Below are positions 4,622-50,882 of a DNA stretch of 64,000 bases, piece after piece. This stretch comes from Naegleria gruberi. Its lineage: Eukaryota. The notes below the pieces were generated by a model. That model ran no database searches and was not told where the DNA came from. It worked only from the letters and a program-made list of their open reading frames with translations. A program made the translations under genes and the position numbers. Within the stretch, counting starts at the first letter, position 1; each line of letters starts with the position of its first letter. The stretch lies in the NCBI GenBank assembly GCA_000004985.1, contig GG738931.1; one strand, given 5' to 3'.

Positions 4622-7309
4622 TTATTGGTAATAATTCATACAGAATGAAAATTGATTGAGAGCAATAAGACCTGGAAATCTGATTACACTGCACACGCTA
4701 TTAATCTTTGAAAGAGGAATTACTGAAGTGGCAACTGAGTGAATGAATAGTTTGTACATTAATGATACATAACACAACTCTCCAAGCGTAAAAATTTCAT
4801 CACAACAAACAACATTATCCCCTAATTGAGATATCTTCCCAATAAATCTATCGAATTGAATATACATTCCAACCTTAAGTGATGATTTTCTAGCAACATC
4901 AAGTGTTTTACCAACTAATCGTCTTGTAAATGGATAATCTGCAAATAATGTATTCATTCCAACTTCATGTTGCAACCCTCTAACTTCAAGTAATTTGTTA
5001 TTACTTCTATCATTAAATTGTTTGAATTCAGAATGTTTCAATTCAAAAATCAACGCCCAAAACCATGTAACATCCCCAAAAAGTACACAATCTTCAAAAA
5101 TGTGCGTTGCCCAATGATAATTCGGAAATTGGCAATTATCTTTGCCAAAACAATATGTAAAAATGGATTGAAATTTTGTAAATACTTTTTCACAATACAC
5201 AATATCATCATGAGTATAATTCCCCCTTAATAACCTTATAAAATATTGTAAGTGAAGAATCCATCCTTGATAGAGTAATCCTTTTTTAGAAGAATCTATT
5301 TTCAACTTTTGATTATTATTGTAAATTAATTCACAAATAATAGGAGCACTCATAATAATAAAATCTAACATTGAAATACCTGAAAGAGTGTCAATATCCA
5401 TTCTTAATTCAAGCTTTTTTCCATTTGGAAGAGTATACTTTGTTGATATTTCAATTAAATCATCCATAGCAGTCGCATATTCTAATGCTTGTACAAGTAA
5501 TTTGAGATGTTTTCGAAATAATCCTTGAATTTCTAAATGAAAGAAATCAACTACAGATCTACGATACGGATCTATCATTATTTGAGTAACAAATCTTGAT
5601 TTGATGAATGTTTTGACAATTAATTGATTCATCAATTGTTTTCTTTTGTTTGTTGACATTTGCTTACTTTTGAATCTCTCCTCTTCCCAAGTTTGTTCTT
5701 TTACACCTTTCCTTGCAATTCTATTTTGTTTAGAATCTGCAATTTTAGGTAATTCTGATAATTTCTCAACAATATCTTTCATTTCTGAATGTTCTCTCCT
5801 TTTAAATGTGTGTACACATGTTGGATTAAACGCGGATGCACCCATTAAATCTGTTGGTGTTTTGTCAAGGTTGTCTGACGCATCTAAACATCTGGAACAT
5901 TCATTTTTCATAAGTGCTAAACATTTCAATCTTTCAGGTGTATCTAATAAAAATCCCATACAGCAAATGAATAGCTTAATATCTTCTCCTGTAGTTGGAT
6001 GTTTCACTGTAATGATTTTACCATCATGATTTTCAAAATCTTGAATAATTGAATCAGTCATTTTCCAAAATCCTTCATTACTCCATGAAAAACCGTTTAC
6101 ACGAATTGCGCTTAAACTTGACATGAAATCTGAATCAAAATTGTAACTTGTGAAATAGGAGGCGCATGTTGACTTGGTTTTTGTTCTGAATTTAGCAAAA
6201 TCATCAAAATATTCTAAAACTAGAAATGGAAATGCATCTTCAGGGCATTTAGCAAGGTATTCACCAAATATTTTTGAAAAGTAAGGTTGATTTTCTTTCT
6301 TTTGTATATTCTTTTTTTCAAAATATTCTTTTCGTGTTAAGCACATGTGTTTTGTGATTGCTTGATCTTTCAACAACAATTTCAAATTATTCTCAAATGA
6401 AATTGCTGCAAATCCATCCTCTTGTTTGTATTCAAAATTGATCATTGCTTTTTTCCTTTCGAGTAATGTATCGTAACAAGGAATTTCGTTAAAAGTTGAT
6501 TCAGGGACCATGTATTTGAACATATCTCTAAGGAAATCGTACCCACTTTTACACAATTTGAAATGATTAACCAAAATATAACAGTATATTTCTTCTTTTG
6601 ATTGAAATACACCCTTTCCATTCACATCTTTTAAAATTTCACACCCCAAATCATATGGTAGCTCTTTAAAAACAAAATTTCCAATTTTTTCACATTTTAC
6701 ATCCGATTCTTTGTGAAATATTTCTGAAACTGGAAAATAAAGAGTGTCAATTATTGAAAAGGGAGTTTCAATTGTATTAGCAAATCCGAAAATACTACCT
6801 TCAGCTAAAACTTGTTGTGAGTGAATTCCGTTTTGTTTTAGCTTCTTCTGTTGCGATTCGTATTCAGTCAGCTTTGGTAATCTACTGTCTTTAGATTTTA
6901 GCAAATGTGTACAATGTGAATTAATAATGTGAGTGTAACAATTTTCACTGTTCATGATAAAATTACAACAATTAAATCTTGATACAGTATCTATCTTTGC
7001 AAGAGAACAATTTCCCTTAGAACATCTATTAAGATGCTTTTTTAATAAATCTCCCTTTGTAAATGTTTGACAACAAAAAGGACAGACCCAGCGTTTTGTT
7101 TGACAATCACGACATGAAGAACATAAACTTAAATCAAATGAAGATTTTGCACATTCATACACATAGTACTCTTCCTCTTTTTGACATTTATCGCATTTTG
7201 TTGCTTTTGTGAGAAAATCAAGGGATACATTGTTACCAGGTTTTTGTGTAATCATTTTTTTAGCATTGTAAACCATATGAAATTCTACCAAATAGTGGTT
7301 ATTTTTCAA
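4622..7309 (-). CDS. Large transposase-like protein (TnpD/Tnp2 or KDZ-like candidate) with an N-terminal Cys/His zinc-finger region
   Basis: Intact 895-aa ORF. The N-terminus carries multiple CxxC/C2H2-like motifs (CPFCCQTFTKGDLLKKHLNRC). An internal block GFLLDTPERLKCLALMKNECSRC resembles the DFPAYG...CPxC block of CACTA/En-Spm TnpD, and EDGFAAISF resembles its DGFNPF motif. Recognised from memory only, not by HMM. Confidence 0.45.
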   Translation of the reverse strand: MKNNHYLVEFHMVYNAKKMITQKPGNNVSLDFLTKATKCDKCQKEEEYYVYECAKSSFDLSLCSSCRDCQTKRWVCPFCCQTFTKGDLLKKHLNRCSKGNCSLAKIDTVSRFNCCNFIMNSENCYTHIINSHCTHLLKSKDSRLPKLTEYESQQKKLKQNGIHSQQVLAEGSIFGFANTIETPFSIIDTLYFPVSEIFHKESDVKCEKIGNFVFKELPYDLGCEILKDVNGKGVFQSKEEIYCYILVNHFKLCKSGYDFLRDMFKYMVPESTFNEIPCYDTLLERKKAMINFEYKQEDGFAAISFENNLKLLLKDQAITKHMCLTRKEYFEKKNIQKKENQPYFSKIFGEYLAKCPEDAFPFLVLEYFDDFAKFRTKTKSTCASYFTSYNFDSDFMSSLSAIRVNGFSWSNEGFWKMTDSIIQDFENHDGKIITVKHPTTGEDIKLFICCMGFLLDTPERLKCLALMKNECSRCLDASDNLDKTPTDLMGASAFNPTCVHTFKRREHSEMKDIVEKLSELPKIADSKQNRIARKGVKEQTWEEERFKSKQMSTNKRKQLMNQLIVKTFIKSRFVTQIMIDPYRRSVVDFFHLEIQGLFRKHLKLLVQALEYATAMDDLIEISTKYTLPNGKKLELRMDIDTLSGISMLDFIIMSAPIICELIYNNNQKLKIDSSKKGLLYQGWILHLQYFIRLLRGNYTHDDIVYCEKVFTKFQSIFTYCFGKDNCQFPNYHWATHIFEDCVLFGDVTWFWALIFELKHSEFKQFNDRSNNKLLEVRGLQHEVGMNTLFADYPFTRRLVGKTLDVARKSSLKVGMYIQFDRFIGKISQLGDNVVCCDEIFTLGELCYVSLMYKLFIHSVATSVIPLSKINSVCSVIRFPGLIALNQFSFCMNYYQ

Positions 7310-31785: not shown

Positions 31786-33447
31786 TTAGTAAGGATATTT
31801 ACATGGTCTCGTGGTTGGTGTAATGTAAGCACTGGTGGTTAAACGGAGAGGTGGCAATTGGAAGCTAATTGAAAATTCCATTTCCATCATAAAGGCAGTA
31901 TATCCCAAAGGTGGATTCTTGACAACGACACGATAGTTCATTCCTGAGGCATCTAATGGTGTGACTGGGGTGAATGTGAAGGCCTTTCCAATAGTGGTAA
32001 TTCTGAAATCTCTTGCATTTGGATTGGTGGCTTGCCACAATTTAACAACAGTTGGTCTAGTTCCATTGGTAATTCTCAAATCGAGTTGGAGTCCAACGGA
32101 GTGAACATCTTGACTGGAGAATTCATAGTTTGGAAGATTAATACCATAGAGATGGGCATAATAATCGACTAAAACAGCATCCATCATATCACTGCCTTCC
32201 ATATTGTGTCCAGTATTTGGCAGGTATTTCAATCTCTTTTCACCAACAAGATGAGGATAACCATTTGGAGACAAGTCTGGCCAGAAGAATTCATCTCCCA
32301 TACTATAGATCAAGAACTTGTTAATGTTGGCATATCTTTCAGTGTAGACGAGTGGATCCAAAATTCCAGCCAATGCATCAAATTCCTTAGTATTCAACCG
32401 GGTGACAATTCCTTGATCCATGTAAGAATCCATTGCTTCAGGGAATTTACACAAACTATCATAAGTTTCCATCAAATTTTTCTTCAAATCCAAAACAGCA
32501 ATAACCATAGGAATGATATTTTTCACTCTCTTATCAACAGCAGCAAGAAGCCAAGTGGTCCAACCCTTCTTACTAGTTCCTTGAACTGTGAATTGTTCAA
32601 TGGTGTGTCCTAATTCTTTCTTTGCAAAGTCTTGAATAGTATCCAATCCCTTTTGTCCAGCTCTTGTCATTGGCAAGTGAGCAATCCAATAAGGTTTACT
32701 AGTGTCATTCATGAAATGTCTCCAAGTAAATGCAACAATTCCGTCCTCAGCTCTTTCCTCTCTTTTTGGATCAGCTTCAAATACAATTGCTTGATTAGGA
32801 ACTTGCATCATTTCAGTAACAATTGTACCAGTAGCAACAGCAATCTTGGTCAAATCAGCAAGATCATCCAAATTTGGAGTCTTGTCAGTATTTCTCTTTC
32901 CAATCATCCACAACAGTCCTTCCTTCTTATCTCTATTCAAATTATGTGGTACAATTACCAACATGAAATGCCACCAAACATATCGTCCATTCAAAATATC
33001 TTTTGGTGAAAGCCACACTTGACTTGTCATGTTCAACACATAGGTAGTAGCAGCAAGCCCATGCATGGTATTGATCAATCGATATGAATAATTATTATCC
33101 GGATAAGATTCCATAAATTCATCCAAGGCTGTTTTTTTAAAAGATTGATCAGCCTTTGAAGATGAAACCTTCCCAACACGAGAATTTACTTTTTCTCCTC
33201 TGATCAATTTCATAGAAGGAACAAGACTTCCCTCCACTACTGATGATGACGATGTATTAATCAACAGCAATACAATACTGTACATCAGCACAACACTACC
33301 CAACAACAACAAGACTCGCATCATTTTTGAAGATTCATTTCCAGTACTCGATAACGAACGCGAAAATTCCCTCCTCTCAAATTGTGGCATTTTTTTAAGG
33401 TCGAAAAAGCAAGTGAAAATAAGATGTGAATTTCTTGGAAGGTTCAT
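31786..33447 (-). CDS. PhoPQ-activated pathogenicity-related (PqaA-family) protein homologue, with an N-terminal TM/signal anchor
   Basis: 553-aa ORF with a hydrophobic N-terminus (MMRVLLLLGSVVLMYSIVLLLIN). Blocks such as GTSKKGWTTWLLAAVD are recognised from memory as the PqaA family (PF10142), found in dictyostelids and bacteria. Confidence 0.5.
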   Translation of the reverse strand: MNLPRNSHLIFTCFFDLKKMPQFERREFSRSLSSTGNESSKMMRVLLLLGSVVLMYSIVLLLINTSSSSVVEGSLVPSMKLIRGEKVNSRVGKVSSSKADQSFKKTALDEFMESYPDNNYSYRLINTMHGLAATTYVLNMTSQVWLSPKDILNGRYVWWHFMLVIVPHNLNRDKKEGLLWMIGKRNTDKTPNLDDLADLTKIAVATGTIVTEMMQVPNQAIVFEADPKREERAEDGIVAFTWRHFMNDTSKPYWIAHLPMTRAGQKGLDTIQDFAKKELGHTIEQFTVQGTSKKGWTTWLLAAVDKRVKNIIPMVIAVLDLKKNLMETYDSLCKFPEAMDSYMDQGIVTRLNTKEFDALAGILDPLVYTERYANINKFLIYSMGDEFFWPDLSPNGYPHLVGEKRLKYLPNTGHNMEGSDMMDAVLVDYYAHLYGINLPNYEFSSQDVHSVGLQLDLRITNGTRPTVVKLWQATNPNARDFRITTIGKAFTFTPVTPLDASGMNYRVVVKNPPLGYTAFMMEMEFSISFQLPPLRLTTSAYITPTTRPCKYPY

Positions 33448-39720: not shown

Positions 39721-40833
39721 TTACAAATGCTTTCTATGAACGATACTTTCACCAATTTCTTCAAATTCTGATTTCTTAATTGAGATATTATCCACATGAT
39801 GTAGACACGACAATATAGAACCTCCAATCCATGAGGAATATTCTCTCTCTGGTGGACTAATCACTCTAAACTTATATTTGTAATCTGAACTCTGAGAGGA
39901 ATTCAACTCTTGGACAAGTCGTTCAGAGAAATTTGGAATGAGAGTATTACCTCCTGAAAGAATCATATTATCTAGACAATCTCTTTTGAAAATGGGTTCC
40001 AGATTATTGACAGATTTGAGAATTAGTTCGTGAATGGAAGGTTGTTCTGGTTTGTTGATTAGTGAAGGACGAAAGAGAATTTCTGGACATTTGAATTGTT
40101 CAAGACCAAGTGTAATTGTTTGATCTCCAACTTGATAAACCTTCTTACAAATATCAATTCTCTGATTTTCCAATGGATAATCCATGGAAATTTCACACAA
40201 TTTTTCCTTAATTTCTTTAAAGTGGTGTTCAATTCCACTTGCCTTATCAATTGTGAATCCCAAATCATCATGAATTAATTTTCCCATATATTCAGTTAAA
40301 TCCCTTCCACCAAATTCCAACTTATAACAGTATTGAGATATTAACTGTCCATCACAAAATGGTGCTGATTGAGTGAGTCCATCTCCACTTTTCAACACCA
40401 AACCAGTTGTCCTTCCAATTGCTAAAAGTGATGAAAGAGATCGATCGACCAAACAAATTATTGGACTCTGCAATTTTTCAAATAACATTTCAGCAATTTT
40501 CACTCGATTCCTTTTCACAGTCGTTACAGAATTATAAACAATCATTATTGGGCTAGTCAACTCAACGAGATAATCTTTCAATTCGTTTGAAATAATAAAC
40601 TGCAACATTGCCTCCAGATCATTGAAATTAGATATCTGTCCTCCTCTCTCTATCGGAAACTTTAGATCACCATCAATATCTTCAAGATTCAATGATAAAA
40701 ACTTGCTCCGAATTCTTTGAATTTTTGTTGATTTTTTGGCAATAATTGAAGCGGGTAAATCATCACCTCCAATTCCACTTTTAATTGATGAGGAACCAAA
40801 ATCAATAACTGCTGTGCTTGGGTGTTGAAACAT
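39721..40833 (-). CDS. Actin-related protein (divergent actin-fold, Arp-like)
   Basis: VIDFGSSSIKSGIGGDDLP, FPIERGGQISNFNDLE, LSGGNTLIPNFSERLVQEL and ISPPEREYSSWIGGSILS align to the actin phosphate-1, connect and phosphate-2 motifs. Confidence 0.8.
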   Translation of the reverse strand: MFQHPSTAVIDFGSSSIKSGIGGDDLPASIIAKKSTKIQRIRSKFLSLNLEDIDGDLKFPIERGGQISNFNDLEAMLQFIISNELKDYLVELTSPIMIVYNSVTTVKRNRVKIAEMLFEKLQSPIICLVDRSLSSLLAIGRTTGLVLKSGDGLTQSAPFCDGQLISQYCYKLEFGGRDLTEYMGKLIHDDLGFTIDKASGIEHHFKEIKEKLCEISMDYPLENQRIDICKKVYQVGDQTITLGLEQFKCPEILFRPSLINKPEQPSIHELILKSVNNLEPIFKRDCLDNMILSGGNTLIPNFSERLVQELNSSQSSDYKYKFRVISPPEREYSSWIGGSILSCLHHVDNISIKKSEFEEIGESIVHRKHL

Positions 40834-40924: not shown

Positions 40925-42232
40925 TTACACAAACATTTGTTCAAATTCCTTTGAAACCTTAAATCTCATATAAATATCAGGAATTACAGTTGACATGACT
41001 TCATTCAAAACTTCATCAAATATAGACGAAATATTTTCAGAATTTGGATTCGATTCGAGTGCCTTCTTAATCTCCACTCTCTTAGCATCATTTGTATTGA
41101 TGAAATTTGGATTGTCAATGTTAGAGAGATAGTCAGCAAATACTTTTTTGGCAAATTGAAATTTGACATCTAGAGAATCTTTGGATTGTTTGAATTGATG
41201 CACTGTTTCATAGAAGGTAATGTTTTCTGCGTTCAGTTCTTTAAAGGCATAGACCTTGAAATACTTTCTCTTAGTTTCGTCTTGTAGGACGTCGTGTACA
41301 CTGAGTGAAAAATCCAATTTAGAATTTCGTTCAGAATCGGTTGTGGTTTTCTGAATGAAACAGATAAATGTCAATGTGGTCTTTGGTTTCATCATTTTTT
41401 CAACTTGCTTTTTAGCTTTACGAGTATTCTGAGCTTCCAGACGTTTGTACATTTCATTCGAAAGCATTTCAAAACTTGCCTTCTTTTTCTTTTTGGTCAA
41501 CTTGCACATTTGTGGACTTTTTCCAGCATTTCCCAAATCATCCAATAAATTACTTGATGAAGAACTACTAGAACTATCACTTTCCACAGTTAACAAATCC
41601 GAAAAGTCAAAAATCATTGAAGAAATGACATCTGGAGCATCACCAAATAAACCATGATTAAAACTCTGAATAACAGTTGAATCTCTAATGAGGAACATCT
41701 TTGGGACCACTAGGAAACTCTCCCCTTCAAACTGTTCCAATGGCAATCCCAACACTTGCCCAAATCCTTCATCCTTCTCAATCACTGCCAATTTTGGTAA
41801 AACTTGCGGAACATCCGGATGTTTAAACTCCACTCCGAAATGCTTTGCCAACAAGTGCTCCTTATCACACAACCTTATCATTTCCTTCAAGATTGGATTC
41901 GAATTATGATGCTCCTCCAAAATCTCCTTCACTTCTTCATCACTCTCCACATGAATCACCACCGGAATGATATTCAATTGTAAAAGTGATTTGTAAATTT
42001 TTGCAATTTGATAAAGTCGTCGATTACAAAAGGCACATCCACCAAATCGTAAGAATCTGCGGAAGATTAGTAAGCAATTGTGGTGTTGGGATAGTTGGGC
42101 AAGTGTTTTTCCATTGGAAGTTTTGAATTGTGTGAAAATTTGTTTCTCCACGAAAATGTCCGCTTTCGAATGGGAGTTTAGGTAGTTATCTGTTTTTGCA
42201 GAATCTGAATGGGTTGAAATCATGGGATCCAT
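40925..42232 (-). CDS. Fusion protein: N-terminal PRXL2/FAM213-like thioredoxin-fold domain (CxxC) plus C-terminal RGS domain
   Basis: N-terminus LIFRRFLRFGGCAFCNRRLYQIAKIYKSLLQLNIIPVVIHVES, compared with PRXL2 AVRRPGCFLCREEAADL...LGVPLYAVVKE. C-terminal ~120 aa shows the RGS pattern (ENITFYETVHQFKQ...FQFAKKVFADYLS...IYMRFKVSKEF). A Ser-run linker lies between them. Confidence 0.65.
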   Translation of the reverse strand: MDPMISTHSDSAKTDNYLNSHSKADIFVEKQIFTQFKTSNGKTLAQLSQHHNCLLIFRRFLRFGGCAFCNRRLYQIAKIYKSLLQLNIIPVVIHVESDEEVKEILEEHHNSNPILKEMIRLCDKEHLLAKHFGVEFKHPDVPQVLPKLAVIEKDEGFGQVLGLPLEQFEGESFLVVPKMFLIRDSTVIQSFNHGLFGDAPDVISSMIFDFSDLLTVESDSSSSSSSSNLLDDLGNAGKSPQMCKLTKKKKKASFEMLSNEMYKRLEAQNTRKAKKQVEKMMKPKTTLTFICFIQKTTTDSERNSKLDFSLSVHDVLQDETKRKYFKVYAFKELNAENITFYETVHQFKQSKDSLDVKFQFAKKVFADYLSNIDNPNFINTNDAKRVEIKKALESNPNSENISSIFDEVLNEVMSTVIPDIYMRFKVSKEFEQMFV

Positions 42233-42560: not shown

Positions 42561-43996
42561 ATGTCAAAATTGGCTGGAGACGAAATTTATCAAATTTTAA
42601 CATTTTTCATATCGGAAGGAATATCAATTGTTAACATCTATTCGTTGGTTAGCAAACAATGGAGGGAAGAATGCATGAAAATTCCTATCAAAGTGAAAGT
42701 TTATTCTCATTCGAATATTTCCAAAAATGTAGAAAAGTTTCGAATAACAGATTTGACTTGGTCCAGCCAACGGGATCAATTCTTTCACACCGAAACACTT
42801 TCTCAATTAAATTTGCCCTACCTGACCACTCTGAATGCCTCATATGAGTTTAGAGTCGATGAAAAATCATTGAAATTGTCTCTCCTCATGCAAGGCAATT
42901 TTATTCGAAATTTGAAAGAATTAAAACTTGATTCGTGGCCGTTGGGATTGAATGGAGCCAGAATTTTATGTAAGAGCAGTGTAGATTTAGTCAATCTGAA
43001 AGTTTTGGACCTTTCGTTTACAAATTTGGGAGATGAGGCAGCGTGTGAAATTTTAAATTCGAATTTCAAGTTACAGACCTTGATTTTGAAATGTTGTAAT
43101 ATCGCAAGAATTACATGAATTGCGAGATGGAAAGTTTGGAAAGTTTGAATTTGCTTGGGAACAAATTACTTGAGGTGCAAGTTGGAGAAAATTTGCCAAA
43201 TATTTCACATTTAAACATTTCGAATAATTTTAATTTGAGTGATACTTCCTTTTTGAAATCCTTTCCAAAATTGACAAATTTGGAAGCGAATAGAAATTTA
43301 GGATTTGAGAATTTGAATGAAACTCTAAATTCCATGACCTGTTTGAAATCTCTCAGTATAACTCAGTGTTTAAAATGGAGAGGTTCACTTGGTCAACCAA
43401 TTTTAAAGAATCTTGAATTTTTGGATATTACAGATTGTGGATTTTCAATCAAGGTTATGTTTAATAATGGAATTGATACCTTTTCAAATATTACTCGCTT
43501 GAATATGGATAATTATTTGTGTATCACTGATTGTGAATTTATTGGAAATGGACTAGCTCTGAGAAATTTGAAACATTTATCAATTAATAGATGCAAATCG
43601 TGGTGGGATTTTGAAAAGATGCTACTTGGTCCTAATATGTCAAATTTGGAAACTCTCTCACTCGAATCATGCCATATTGGAATTCAAGGATGTAAATTAA
43701 TTGCTCAAAGTTCAACTCTGACTCGATTGACCAAACTCAATCTTTCCAATAATTTAATTAAGGATGAAGGATGTGCAATTCTATGCCAATCTTCAAATCT
43801 TCAACATTTAATTTCCTTGGATATTAGTTGGAATGAATTGACCACTTGTTCACATTTGGCAAATAATCAATATTTTGTAAATTTAATTGAATTGAAATTT
43901 GAAAATCGAGTGAGTGGAGATAATGATCCAATGAATGATAAACATCTTCTTGAAACATCACCCCATCTTTCTAAATTGAAAAATTACAAACAATAA
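42561..43996 (+). CDS. F-box / LRR (RNI-like) protein, interrupted by an apparent +1 frameshift near 43100..43117 (possible pseudogene or sequence error)
   Basis: F-box-like DEIYQILTFFISEGISIVNIYSLVSKQWREE. LRRs occur in both ORF segments (42561..43118 and 43115..43996). The frame switch is confined to ~18 nt with no room for an intron. Confidence 0.55.
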
Positions 43997-48927: not shown

Positions 48928-50882
48928 TTGAATTTTAAAAAAAATAATCATCACCAACTTGTTTCCATCACCATGCGAGTGACCGTTCCTGTGGTCCATC
49001 AAGAATCAGAAATCCCTCCCGAATTCAAACATGAAGACAATGATGAATATTGGTGTTTCCTAACAAACTTTGAATTTAGGGATTCAAGAACAACTTCATT
49101 GAAGAGTCCCGAATTTATTACTGAGAAGGGAGTTTCTCTCATGTTGACTGGTTATTTACTAACACCCGAAGAATATAAATCATCTCCTGATGAGAAGGGT
49201 GAATATTTTGTCAAGATTGTTAATTTAAGACAATGGGCTTTTGACCATGAGGATGAAACGAGAGGAATTTGGGTCGAATCTAAGAGACATTGGTTTAAAT
49301 TGATAAAGCCAACAAGGGAATTTAAAGTAATTTATGAATCGTTTGAGAAGAAGAGTAATATTTGGTTGGATTTACGACCTGTATTGACGAGATGGATTAA
49401 AAAGTTTGATAAATGTTCGGATGAAGATGTGAAAGCAGTGATAAATGATTTAACAATGGAATATGTGATGAAATCCATGAAAGTGAAAGGACATAGTGAG
49501 GAGGAGCTTATTGAAAATGCATTCTTTATTCATGATAAGGCAGTTCAAGATTTTGATACCTTTTCATTTGAGGACTCGTCAGAAAATCAACTTCTTAGAA
49601 CACCTTTTATGAAGGATTTGTTGGAATTGTCTTCTGAAAAGTCTAAAATTCCCATTATTGCTAAATCTCACTCAGTTGATAAAAAGGGGAAAGAAAAACA
49701 GGTTGTGACTGAAGAGGATTTTTCCTCTGATGATGAGGATATGGATGTAAAGATTGTTATAGACGATTGTTCCTCTTCAGAGGATGATGATGATGAGGAG
49801 TACTTTGTCACAGTTAAAGCTGGCCTTGAGGATGAACATAGTAAGGATGAACATGATGATGATGATGACGACTATGAGGAAACGTTAAAGAAAAAGAGAA
49901 CGAGTTCACAAGCAGCTAAAAGAAATACACCAGAAAAGAAGAGGCCATATGCTCGTAGAACCTCTAAAAAGAGAACACCAACAAAGAATGTTGACAACTC
50001 TGAGAATCAAAAAGAGATTGAAAAAGTCACACCTAAAAAGAGAAAAGAATCGACAATTAGTAGAGAAACTAATGATGACGATGAGGATTTCAATGAAAGT
50101 GAGGAAGAATACAGTTCTGAAAATGGAAAAACCAAACAAAAACGAAGGAAATTCGAAAAACCAAGAAAGGCTACTGTTTGTTATTTCCGTGAATATACTT
50201 CACAACCTGGTGTTCCAACTATGGAGGAGCTATTGAATCAAGAATTCACACCTCGTCTTATTACACAACTCAGTACTAAATATGAACCAGGTCTTGCGAT
50301 TCCAGGTTGCTTCAATTGTCACAGAAAGAGAATTATGTGTCTTAAGGAAAGACCAATTTGTTCTCATTGTCTTGAGGATGGGCTCTATTGTGAATACCCA
50401 TCAGCGTTGAAAGTTTGTCGTAAGTATTATTTAAATTCTTCTTGTTGTTCTCACTCTAATTAGCATGCATACCGTGTTCTTTGAAATCGCAAAAGGTTTG
50501 CAATAGAGAACTTCCTTGCAATCATTGTGAGAATGGTGAATGTTATTACTTTACATCAGATAATGGATTGCTGATTGGAGAAATGAAAATTGCAGCTCTA
50601 AAAGAATTATATGCTAAGATTGATGAAGAAAAAGCTGCAAAGGAACAATCCAGTAGTGATATTCTTGATAATTTGATAAAGGAAACAGCTCAAACAGCTG
50701 AACCTGAAGAGGTTGAGATAGTTGAGGAACATAATGAAGAACTAGAAAGAAATAGAGAACGAGCAGCTGCTCTTAGAGAAGAAATCAAGAAATTGAAAAA
50801 GATTGCCCAACAAGAGACAGCTTTAAATGAAAGGAAAAAGAAAGAATTGAAAGAGATATTTAATTCTTTGAGCTCAAAGTAG
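48928..50882 (+). CDS. Nuclear protein with an acidic/basic low-complexity region, tandem Zn(2)-C6 fungal-type binuclear cluster domains and a C-terminal coiled coil; 2 exons (intron ~50424..50467)
   Basis: CFNCHRKRIMCLKERPICSHCLEDGLYC = C-x2-C-x6-C-x6-C-x2-C-x6-C. Second cluster CIPCSLKSQKVCNRELPCNHCENGEC follows a GTAAGT...TAG intron. K/R-rich NLS-like runs are present. Confidence 0.6.

Follow-up and report, generated by a model that had tools for sequence, protein, structure and literature searches.

Introduction

RGS proteins are largely defined by the accessory domains that set when and where Galpha is switched off. Among the described systems that come closest to the protein considered here, the R4/R12-type RGS proteins (RGS4, RGS10, RGS14) have in common with it the helical RGS box and the equivalents of the key contact residues, but only ~20-25% identity. 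The accessory domain of our protein is a CxxC thioredoxin fold, which has not been reported for any RGS protein in the literature searched. Cysteine chemistry is known to link oxidative state to RGS abundance and activity in RGS4, RGS5 and RGS16, which are oxygen- and NO-sensitive through the Cys2 N-degron pathway; in these proteins a single N-terminal cysteine is the degradation signal, whereas the protein described below carries a dedicated folded domain of redox type. A thioredoxin-fold module within a regulator of heterotrimeric G-protein signalling is likewise familiar from phosducin and the phosducin-like proteins. In phosducin, unlike in the protein studied here, the thioredoxin-like domain has no CxxC, stands apart from any RGS domain and has Gbeta-gamma as its binding partner; we saw no sequence relationship between phosducin and our protein.

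On the redox side, the nearest described groups are the SelL-related redox proteins (NF040769), which are stand-alone CxxC proteins of ~175 aa to which the N-terminal domain of our protein is homologous over the full length, and the PRXL2 family, with PRXL2B/FAM213B as a solved member (PDB 9us9, 9usa), in comparison with which ordinary peroxiredoxins match the fold of our protein equally well or better. The peroxiredoxins themselves (PF00578; Prx6, PrxQ/BCP) share with our protein the peroxiredoxin-like thioredoxin fold, as judged by fold matches, and carry the peroxidatic motif P-x3-T-x2-C, in place of which our protein has R-F-G-G-C-A-F-C. The CxxC motif is characteristic of thiol-disulfide oxidoreductases and not of peroxidases.

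In the Naegleria lineage the sets of RGS and Galpha proteins are greatly enlarged. Galpha proteins have diversified in a lineage-specific manner and distant lineages have evolved RGS architectures of their own (PMC3971589), and 79 non-7TM RGS proteins are recorded for Naegleria fowleri (PMC9283941). Here we analyse a gene from a 64,000-nucleotide stretch of Naegleria gruberi DNA (hereafter the window), in which a sequence-only reading had noticed a PRXL2/FAM213-like CxxC domain joined to an RGS domain. We describe the domains of its product and the family to which it belongs, and consider how the two modules might work together.

Results

The gene lies at 40925-42232 on the minus strand of the window and is a complete single-exon CDS of 435 aa plus stop (ORF listing and exact-sequence look-up), that is, 1308 nt with no internal stop in AT-rich eukaryotic DNA (GC ~0.27-0.41). 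An exact-sequence match in the protein collection identified its translation with N. gruberi XP_002669166.1 / EFC36422.1 / UniProt D2W3H3 (NAEGRDRAFT_82234), and therefore the deposited gene model is the same uninterrupted ORF; the database name of D2W3H3 is only "predicted protein". A 99%-identical copy of the gene is found on an independent metagenome contig (L003). Our analysis confirmed that this one ORF encodes, as had been read from the letters, a thioredoxin-fold domain with a CxxC, followed by a low-complexity linker and then by an RGS domain, and the sequence strings quoted in that reading, the poly-Ser run and the C-terminal helical region are all present in the translation. We regard the identity and the two-domain architecture of the gene product as very nearly certain. 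Neither a signal peptide nor a hydrophobic segment is visible in the 435-aa sequence, which points to a cytosolic protein, and no second copy of the N-terminal domain or of the RGS domain was found elsewhere in the window. The implication that relatives should be sought among amoebozoa has to be corrected: N. gruberi is a heterolobosean (Discoba), and an assignment to Amoebozoa was rejected.

The surroundings of the gene hold several ORFs worth recording in their own right. A divergent actin or actin-related ORF at 39721-40833 (-) (PF00022, 221 bits) lies 91 bp downstream of the gene, and this adjacency is repeated on contig L003. Two leucine-rich-repeat ORFs, 42561-43118 (+) and 43115-43996 (+), which lie in different frames and share 4 bp, are probably a single gene split by an intron or by a frameshift. 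A 511-aa ORF at 48928-50463 (+) has both a DNMT1-RFD (replication foci) domain (36 bits) and a Zn2Cys6 binuclear cluster of fungal type (26 bits), which makes an unusual combination in a heterolobosean, and a 553-aa ORF at 31786-33447 (-) matches PF10142, the bacterial-type PhoPQ-activated pathogenicity-related protein, at 318.7 bits and may be of bacterial origin.

The fusion was at first sight a singular oddity, and this impression did not survive the database search. An exhaustive HMMER search with a profile of the N-terminal domain of the window protein and that of its 47%-identical homologue (P0002), run against 1.84 billion representatives, recovered 129 N-domain relatives at E<=1e-3. 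A word-indexed search returned nothing with the N-domain profile and three proteins only with a 45-member family profile, and therefore the discovery of the family rests on the exhaustive search. An RGS domain is present in 56 of 130 N-domain relatives by Pfam and in 58 by a family-specific RGS HMM, and in all 58 fused proteins the order is the same: N-terminal domain, linker, RGS domain. With ~58 clusters, each at 50% identity, sharing the architecture, the idea of a unique fusion was rejected. The family divides into several subfamilies, and the 45 fused members compared are divergent, with a mean identity of ~24% in the N-terminal domain and ~30% in the RGS domain. Pairwise distances of the two domains among 48 members are correlated (Spearman 0.357, a value reached in 0 of 2000 permutations) and the nearest neighbour is identical in both domains for 21 of the 48; this co-variation argues for inheritance as a unit and is what an old fusion should show. 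A test of synteny for orthology with P0002 was negative, its downstream neighbour not being actin-like. The ORF directly downstream of P0002, at 5628-5795 (+) of its contig L001, starts MINKSKQFDPSKYMLVFEEAMKSVEFVQFFKTFLQKCKNEEPLIFLERAIQ and resembles the beginning of a further RGS domain.

Every named cluster is heterolobosean (order Acrasida): at least four N. lovaniensis paralogues, a 1050-aa protein of N. fowleri, and proteins of Acrasis kona and Willaertia magna, which together with N. gruberi gives three Naegleria species, Willaertia and Acrasis. Taxonomy was looked up for 20 of the ~58 clusters and organism names were available for 8 of these 20, the rest coming from metagenome or SRA assemblies; the restriction of the fused family to Heterolobosea is therefore provisional. 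The fused proteins carry the source labels "RGS domain-containing protein" or "hypothetical". Because their N-terminal domains fall below every curated threshold, they are labelled for the RGS domain only, and the architecture has been effectively invisible. Some members are considerably larger and have extra N-terminal regions (P0098, 1007 aa; P0057, 1205 aa; P0006 and P0007, about 1000 aa), and Pfam finds ankyrin repeats in two family members, one source naming P0098 'ankyrin repeat protein'. One further sequence, P0021 (2307 aa), lacks both the CxxC and an RGS domain and shows ten repeated partial matches to the N-domain profile, at positions 67-132; it may consist of repeats, or the matches may be an artefact of low complexity.

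The N-terminal domain (aa ~25-218; 41579-42160, minus strand) is a peroxiredoxin-like thioredoxin-fold domain of SelL-related, AhpC-TSA_2-like character. The first reading had named PF00615 and PF13911 as the models that hmmscan should find; the former was found at 41.8 bits, but the latter (AhpC-TSA_2, PRXL2; gathering cutoff 27 bits) gave no match to the window protein at E<=10, and among ten fused representatives only P0029 matched it, at 16.7 bits. PF00578 (AhpC/TSA) remained sub-threshold for the window protein at 22.5 bits (E 1.2e-4, cutoff 26) and for all ten representatives, at 14-23 bits. NF040769 (SelL_rel_redox) scored 31.6 bits (E 1.2e-7) against a cutoff of 120 and was aligned only from position 11 to position 85 of its 173; at E<=1e-3 this model is matched by 42 of 45 fused members. 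By curated thresholds, then, the window protein belongs to none of the PRXL2, SelL-related or peroxiredoxin families. Stand-alone relatives of the domain, in contrast, pass both NF040769 and PF13911, with 130-150 bits for the former in P0038, P0047, P0048 and P0053, all of which lie within the stand-alone comparison set.

Profile-profile comparison places the domain more closely. Fused-only N-terminal domains (58 sequences) aligned with 24 stand-alone SelL-related sequences by hhalign at a probability of 100% (E 1.2e-42, 175 columns), so that homology to the SelL-related proteins can be stated firmly. The same fused-only profile reached PRXL2B at a probability of 73% (P 3e-5), compared with 97% for the stand-alone SelL-related set, and a fused-only HMM scored PRXL2B at 13.7 bits (E about 0.4). 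With a mixed profile (A5), the best solved sequence relative was human PRXL2B (prostamide/PGF synthase, 9us9_A; E 3.9e-8, whole domain). The PRXL2-like character first ascribed to the domain thus holds at the clan level, by way of the SelL-related proteins, but not, by the curated threshold, at the level of the family itself. The SelL-related and the fused N-terminal domains have in common a T-x-x-G...LS start and the motifs (F/L)-x-R-x-x-G-C-x-F-C, P-V-x-V-H-x-E and H...D-x-P-D; the window subfamily differs in a 3-residue insertion (FRR-FLR-FGGC) before the CxxC, in a C-x-F-C-N-R-R signature and in the RGS fusion itself. On these comparisons we take the domain to be a divergent member of the SelL-related/AhpC-TSA_2 branch with a peroxiredoxin-like thioredoxin fold. 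A canonical peroxiredoxin was considered and rejected on the sub-threshold HMM score and on the absence of P-x3-T/S-x2-C from the corresponding segment, L-R-F-G-G-C66-A-F-C69, in which the Pro expected four residues ahead of C66 is missing and Cys replaces Thr.

The putative redox centre is the CxxC motif C66-A-F-C69 (TGT GCC TTT TGT; 42026-42037, minus strand). Both cysteines are at least 90% conserved over 130 N-domain relatives, and in the fused members C66 is kept in 44 of 45, C69 and P90 each in 43, and H94 and E96 each in 40, the two cysteines being present together in 42 of 45. Such retention suggests that the CxxC is under selection. One of the two cysteines is lost in the fused members P0016, P0037 and P0063 (C-x-x-Q, C-x-x-V and N-x-x-C, respectively), which could serve as natural controls for the sufficiency of one cysteine. 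An AF2 model of aa 25-218, made with a 28-sequence alignment (pLDDT 85.2, pTM 0.84), has thioredoxin-type beta/alpha topology; in it the first long helix after strand 1 (model helix 43-54) begins with the CxxC, which thereby occupies the canonical catalytic position. The full-length model, made with a 3-sequence alignment, has a pLDDT of 31.8, and for this reason interdomain contacts are not read from it.

The two domains are joined by a variable linker (aa 219-310; 41303-41578, minus strand), made up of a poly-Ser run, a Lys-rich predicted helix and a basic/hydrophobic stretch. It is poorly conserved in P0002, where both domains are retained in one ORF, and across the fused family its length ranges from 25 to 471 aa with no conservation of sequence; the 471-aa linker, that of the N. 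fowleri member P0006, is Gln-rich. One feature of it may deserve attention. A cysteine, C291 (in TFICF; 41360-41362, minus strand), lies ~20 aa before the RGS box, is invariant between the window protein and P0002 and recurs in the closest subfamilies. Family-wide, a Cys 5-45 aa upstream of the RGS domain is found in 32 of 58 members, where about 34% would be expected, a modest enrichment. In the Naegleria and Acrasis subfamilies this pre-RGS Cys has a basic/hydrophobic context, [K/R]-x-x-[F/S]-[S/I]-C-[F/V] (alignment A4). C291 might be palmitoylated or might serve as a third redox cysteine, a suggestion that we offer as a lead rather than as a finding.

The RGS signature that had been seen near the C-terminus was borne out by PF00615, which matches aa 311-432 (40937-41302, minus strand) at 41.8 bits (gathering cutoff 23.9) and is covered over profile positions 1-116 of 117; PDB sequence matches of the protein are to RGS10, RGS14, RGS4 and RGS8. 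For comparison with RGS4 we used an HMM-guided alignment, in which the RGS4 sequence is one that we take to be correct, as it agrees with the literature numbering of S85, N128 and D163 and with the 205-aa chain 1agr_E. The residues compared are RGS4 contacts to the Galpha switch regions. Among these, E83, E87, N88, N128, D163 and R167 are kept, as E332, E336, N337, N379, D419 and R423, E83 and R167 forming a structural pair, and the peripheral contacts S85, Y84, L159 and S164 are substituted by N, L, T and I, respectively. Asn379 (41096-41098, minus strand), identified in the RGS4 and RGS10 alignments alike, corresponds to RGS4 Asn128, the key contact to Galpha switch II. Conservation among the fused members is strong: E336 and F405 are found in 45 of 45, N379 and F424 in 43, and R423 and F340 in 42. 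Because the RGS4 Galpha-contact residues are kept, we infer that the RGS domain is GAP-competent.

Discussion

We propose one scenario for how the two modules might work together. The gene product would be a cytosolic protein of two modules that regulates signalling by heterotrimeric G proteins; its RGS domain, with the RGS4-equivalent residues kept, would bind activated Galpha and accelerate GTP hydrolysis, the GAP target perhaps being one or more of the many Galpha paralogues of Naegleria. Let us assume, further, that the CxxC domain passes between a dithiol and a disulfide state and is redox-active in this way. Then the thiol redox environment, perhaps in the form of peroxide or thioredoxin status, would set the amount of GAP activity that reaches Galpha, and it might do so either by occlusion and release of the RGS face or by redox-dependent binding of a partner or of the membrane. 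The conservation of the CxxC together with that of the RGS contacts is consistent with a redox-sensing RGS protein, which is what the sequence-only reading had suggested. The redox activity itself is an extrapolation, since the window protein stays below the score cutoff of every curated redox family. Gating of GAP activity by redox state is, considered as a separate step, a tentative proposal that we place somewhat on the doubtful side, and the range of linker lengths, more easily reconciled with a loose tether than with an exact allosteric switch, counts against it. As a whole, with architecture and redox gating taken together, we lean towards this scenario as the best explanation of the observations.

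The strongest competing explanation makes more of the loose tether. The RGS domain might be mainly an address label that places the protein on active Galpha at the membrane, leaving the tethered CxxC domain to act as an oxidoreductase on a nearby substrate, such as an oxidised cysteine on Galpha or on a receptor, or, by analogy with PRXL2B, a lipid (endo)peroxide. Flexible linkers that vary from 25 to 471 aa would suit tether-and-reach, the best solved sequence relative, PRXL2B, is a CxxC enzyme that acts on a lipid endoperoxide, and a strongly conserved CxxC co-inherited with the RGS domain would be in keeping with an enzyme targeted in this way. However, the retention of the GAP-type residues N379, E336, N337, D419 and R423 suggests more than docking, and the similarity to PRXL2B is remote (73% for the fused-only profile), and therefore substrate specificity is not transferable from it. 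We consider a targeted oxidoreductase rather unlikely, if worth keeping in mind.

Alternatively, the thioredoxin fold might be redox-inert and act as a protein-binding scaffold, its cysteines being structural or metal-binding. Phosducin, whose thioredoxin-like domain binds Gbeta-gamma, is a precedent for this, and none of the curated redox family models reaches its cutoff on the N-terminal domain. On the other hand, redox-inert thioredoxin-fold modules typically lose the CxxC, whereas 42 of the 45 divergent members compared here keep both cysteines, placed where the catalytic pair canonically lies, and this makes a purely structural role improbable. A similar doubt can be raised about the other module. 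It is conceivable that the RGS domain has no GAP function and is a Galpha effector or adaptor of the type seen in GRK2, axin and sorting nexins, in which case a redox enzyme would be recruited to Galpha without termination of the signal. The substitutions S85N, Y84L, L159T and S164I at contact positions and the modest Pfam score of 41.8 bits lend something to such a view; set against them are the equivalents of RGS4 N128, E87, N88 and D163, present in the window protein and conserved family-wide, and we hold it to be quite improbable. That the ORF is an artefact, either a pseudogene or two adjacent genes reading through in frame across a low-complexity linker, can be dismissed for practical purposes in view of 1308 nt without a stop in an AT-rich genome, the same domain order in ~58 clusters and at least five named species, two conserved domains that co-diverge, and the 99%-identical copy on an independent metagenome contig.

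The redox-gated RGS protein, as the explanation we favour, has to be set in the context of what is already on record. The gene is in public databases, and accessory domains peculiar to one lineage are a familiar theme among RGS proteins; what is new is the recognition of a conserved, multi-copy, unlabelled family. The earlier impression that the architecture is uncharacterised agrees with our full-text literature searches, in which no combination of AhpC-TSA, thioredoxin-like or peroxiredoxin domains with RGS was described, with the reservation that an earlier mention in domain surveys is possible. The fusion gives a signalling context to the poorly understood SelL-related/PRXL2 clade, and a conserved CxxC domain of redox type would add thiol redox state as a new input to RGS proteins. 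The hypothesis of a route from redox state to G-protein signalling is directly testable with recombinant protein. If it is true, redox state would be wired directly into signalling by heterotrimeric G proteins, an input undescribed in any organism. For the heteroloboseans, including the pathogen N. fowleri, it would mean, as a possibility that we put forward with some hesitation, that they possess a family of thiol-redox-gated RGS proteins in which oxidation of the CxxC sets the speed at which Galpha is switched off.
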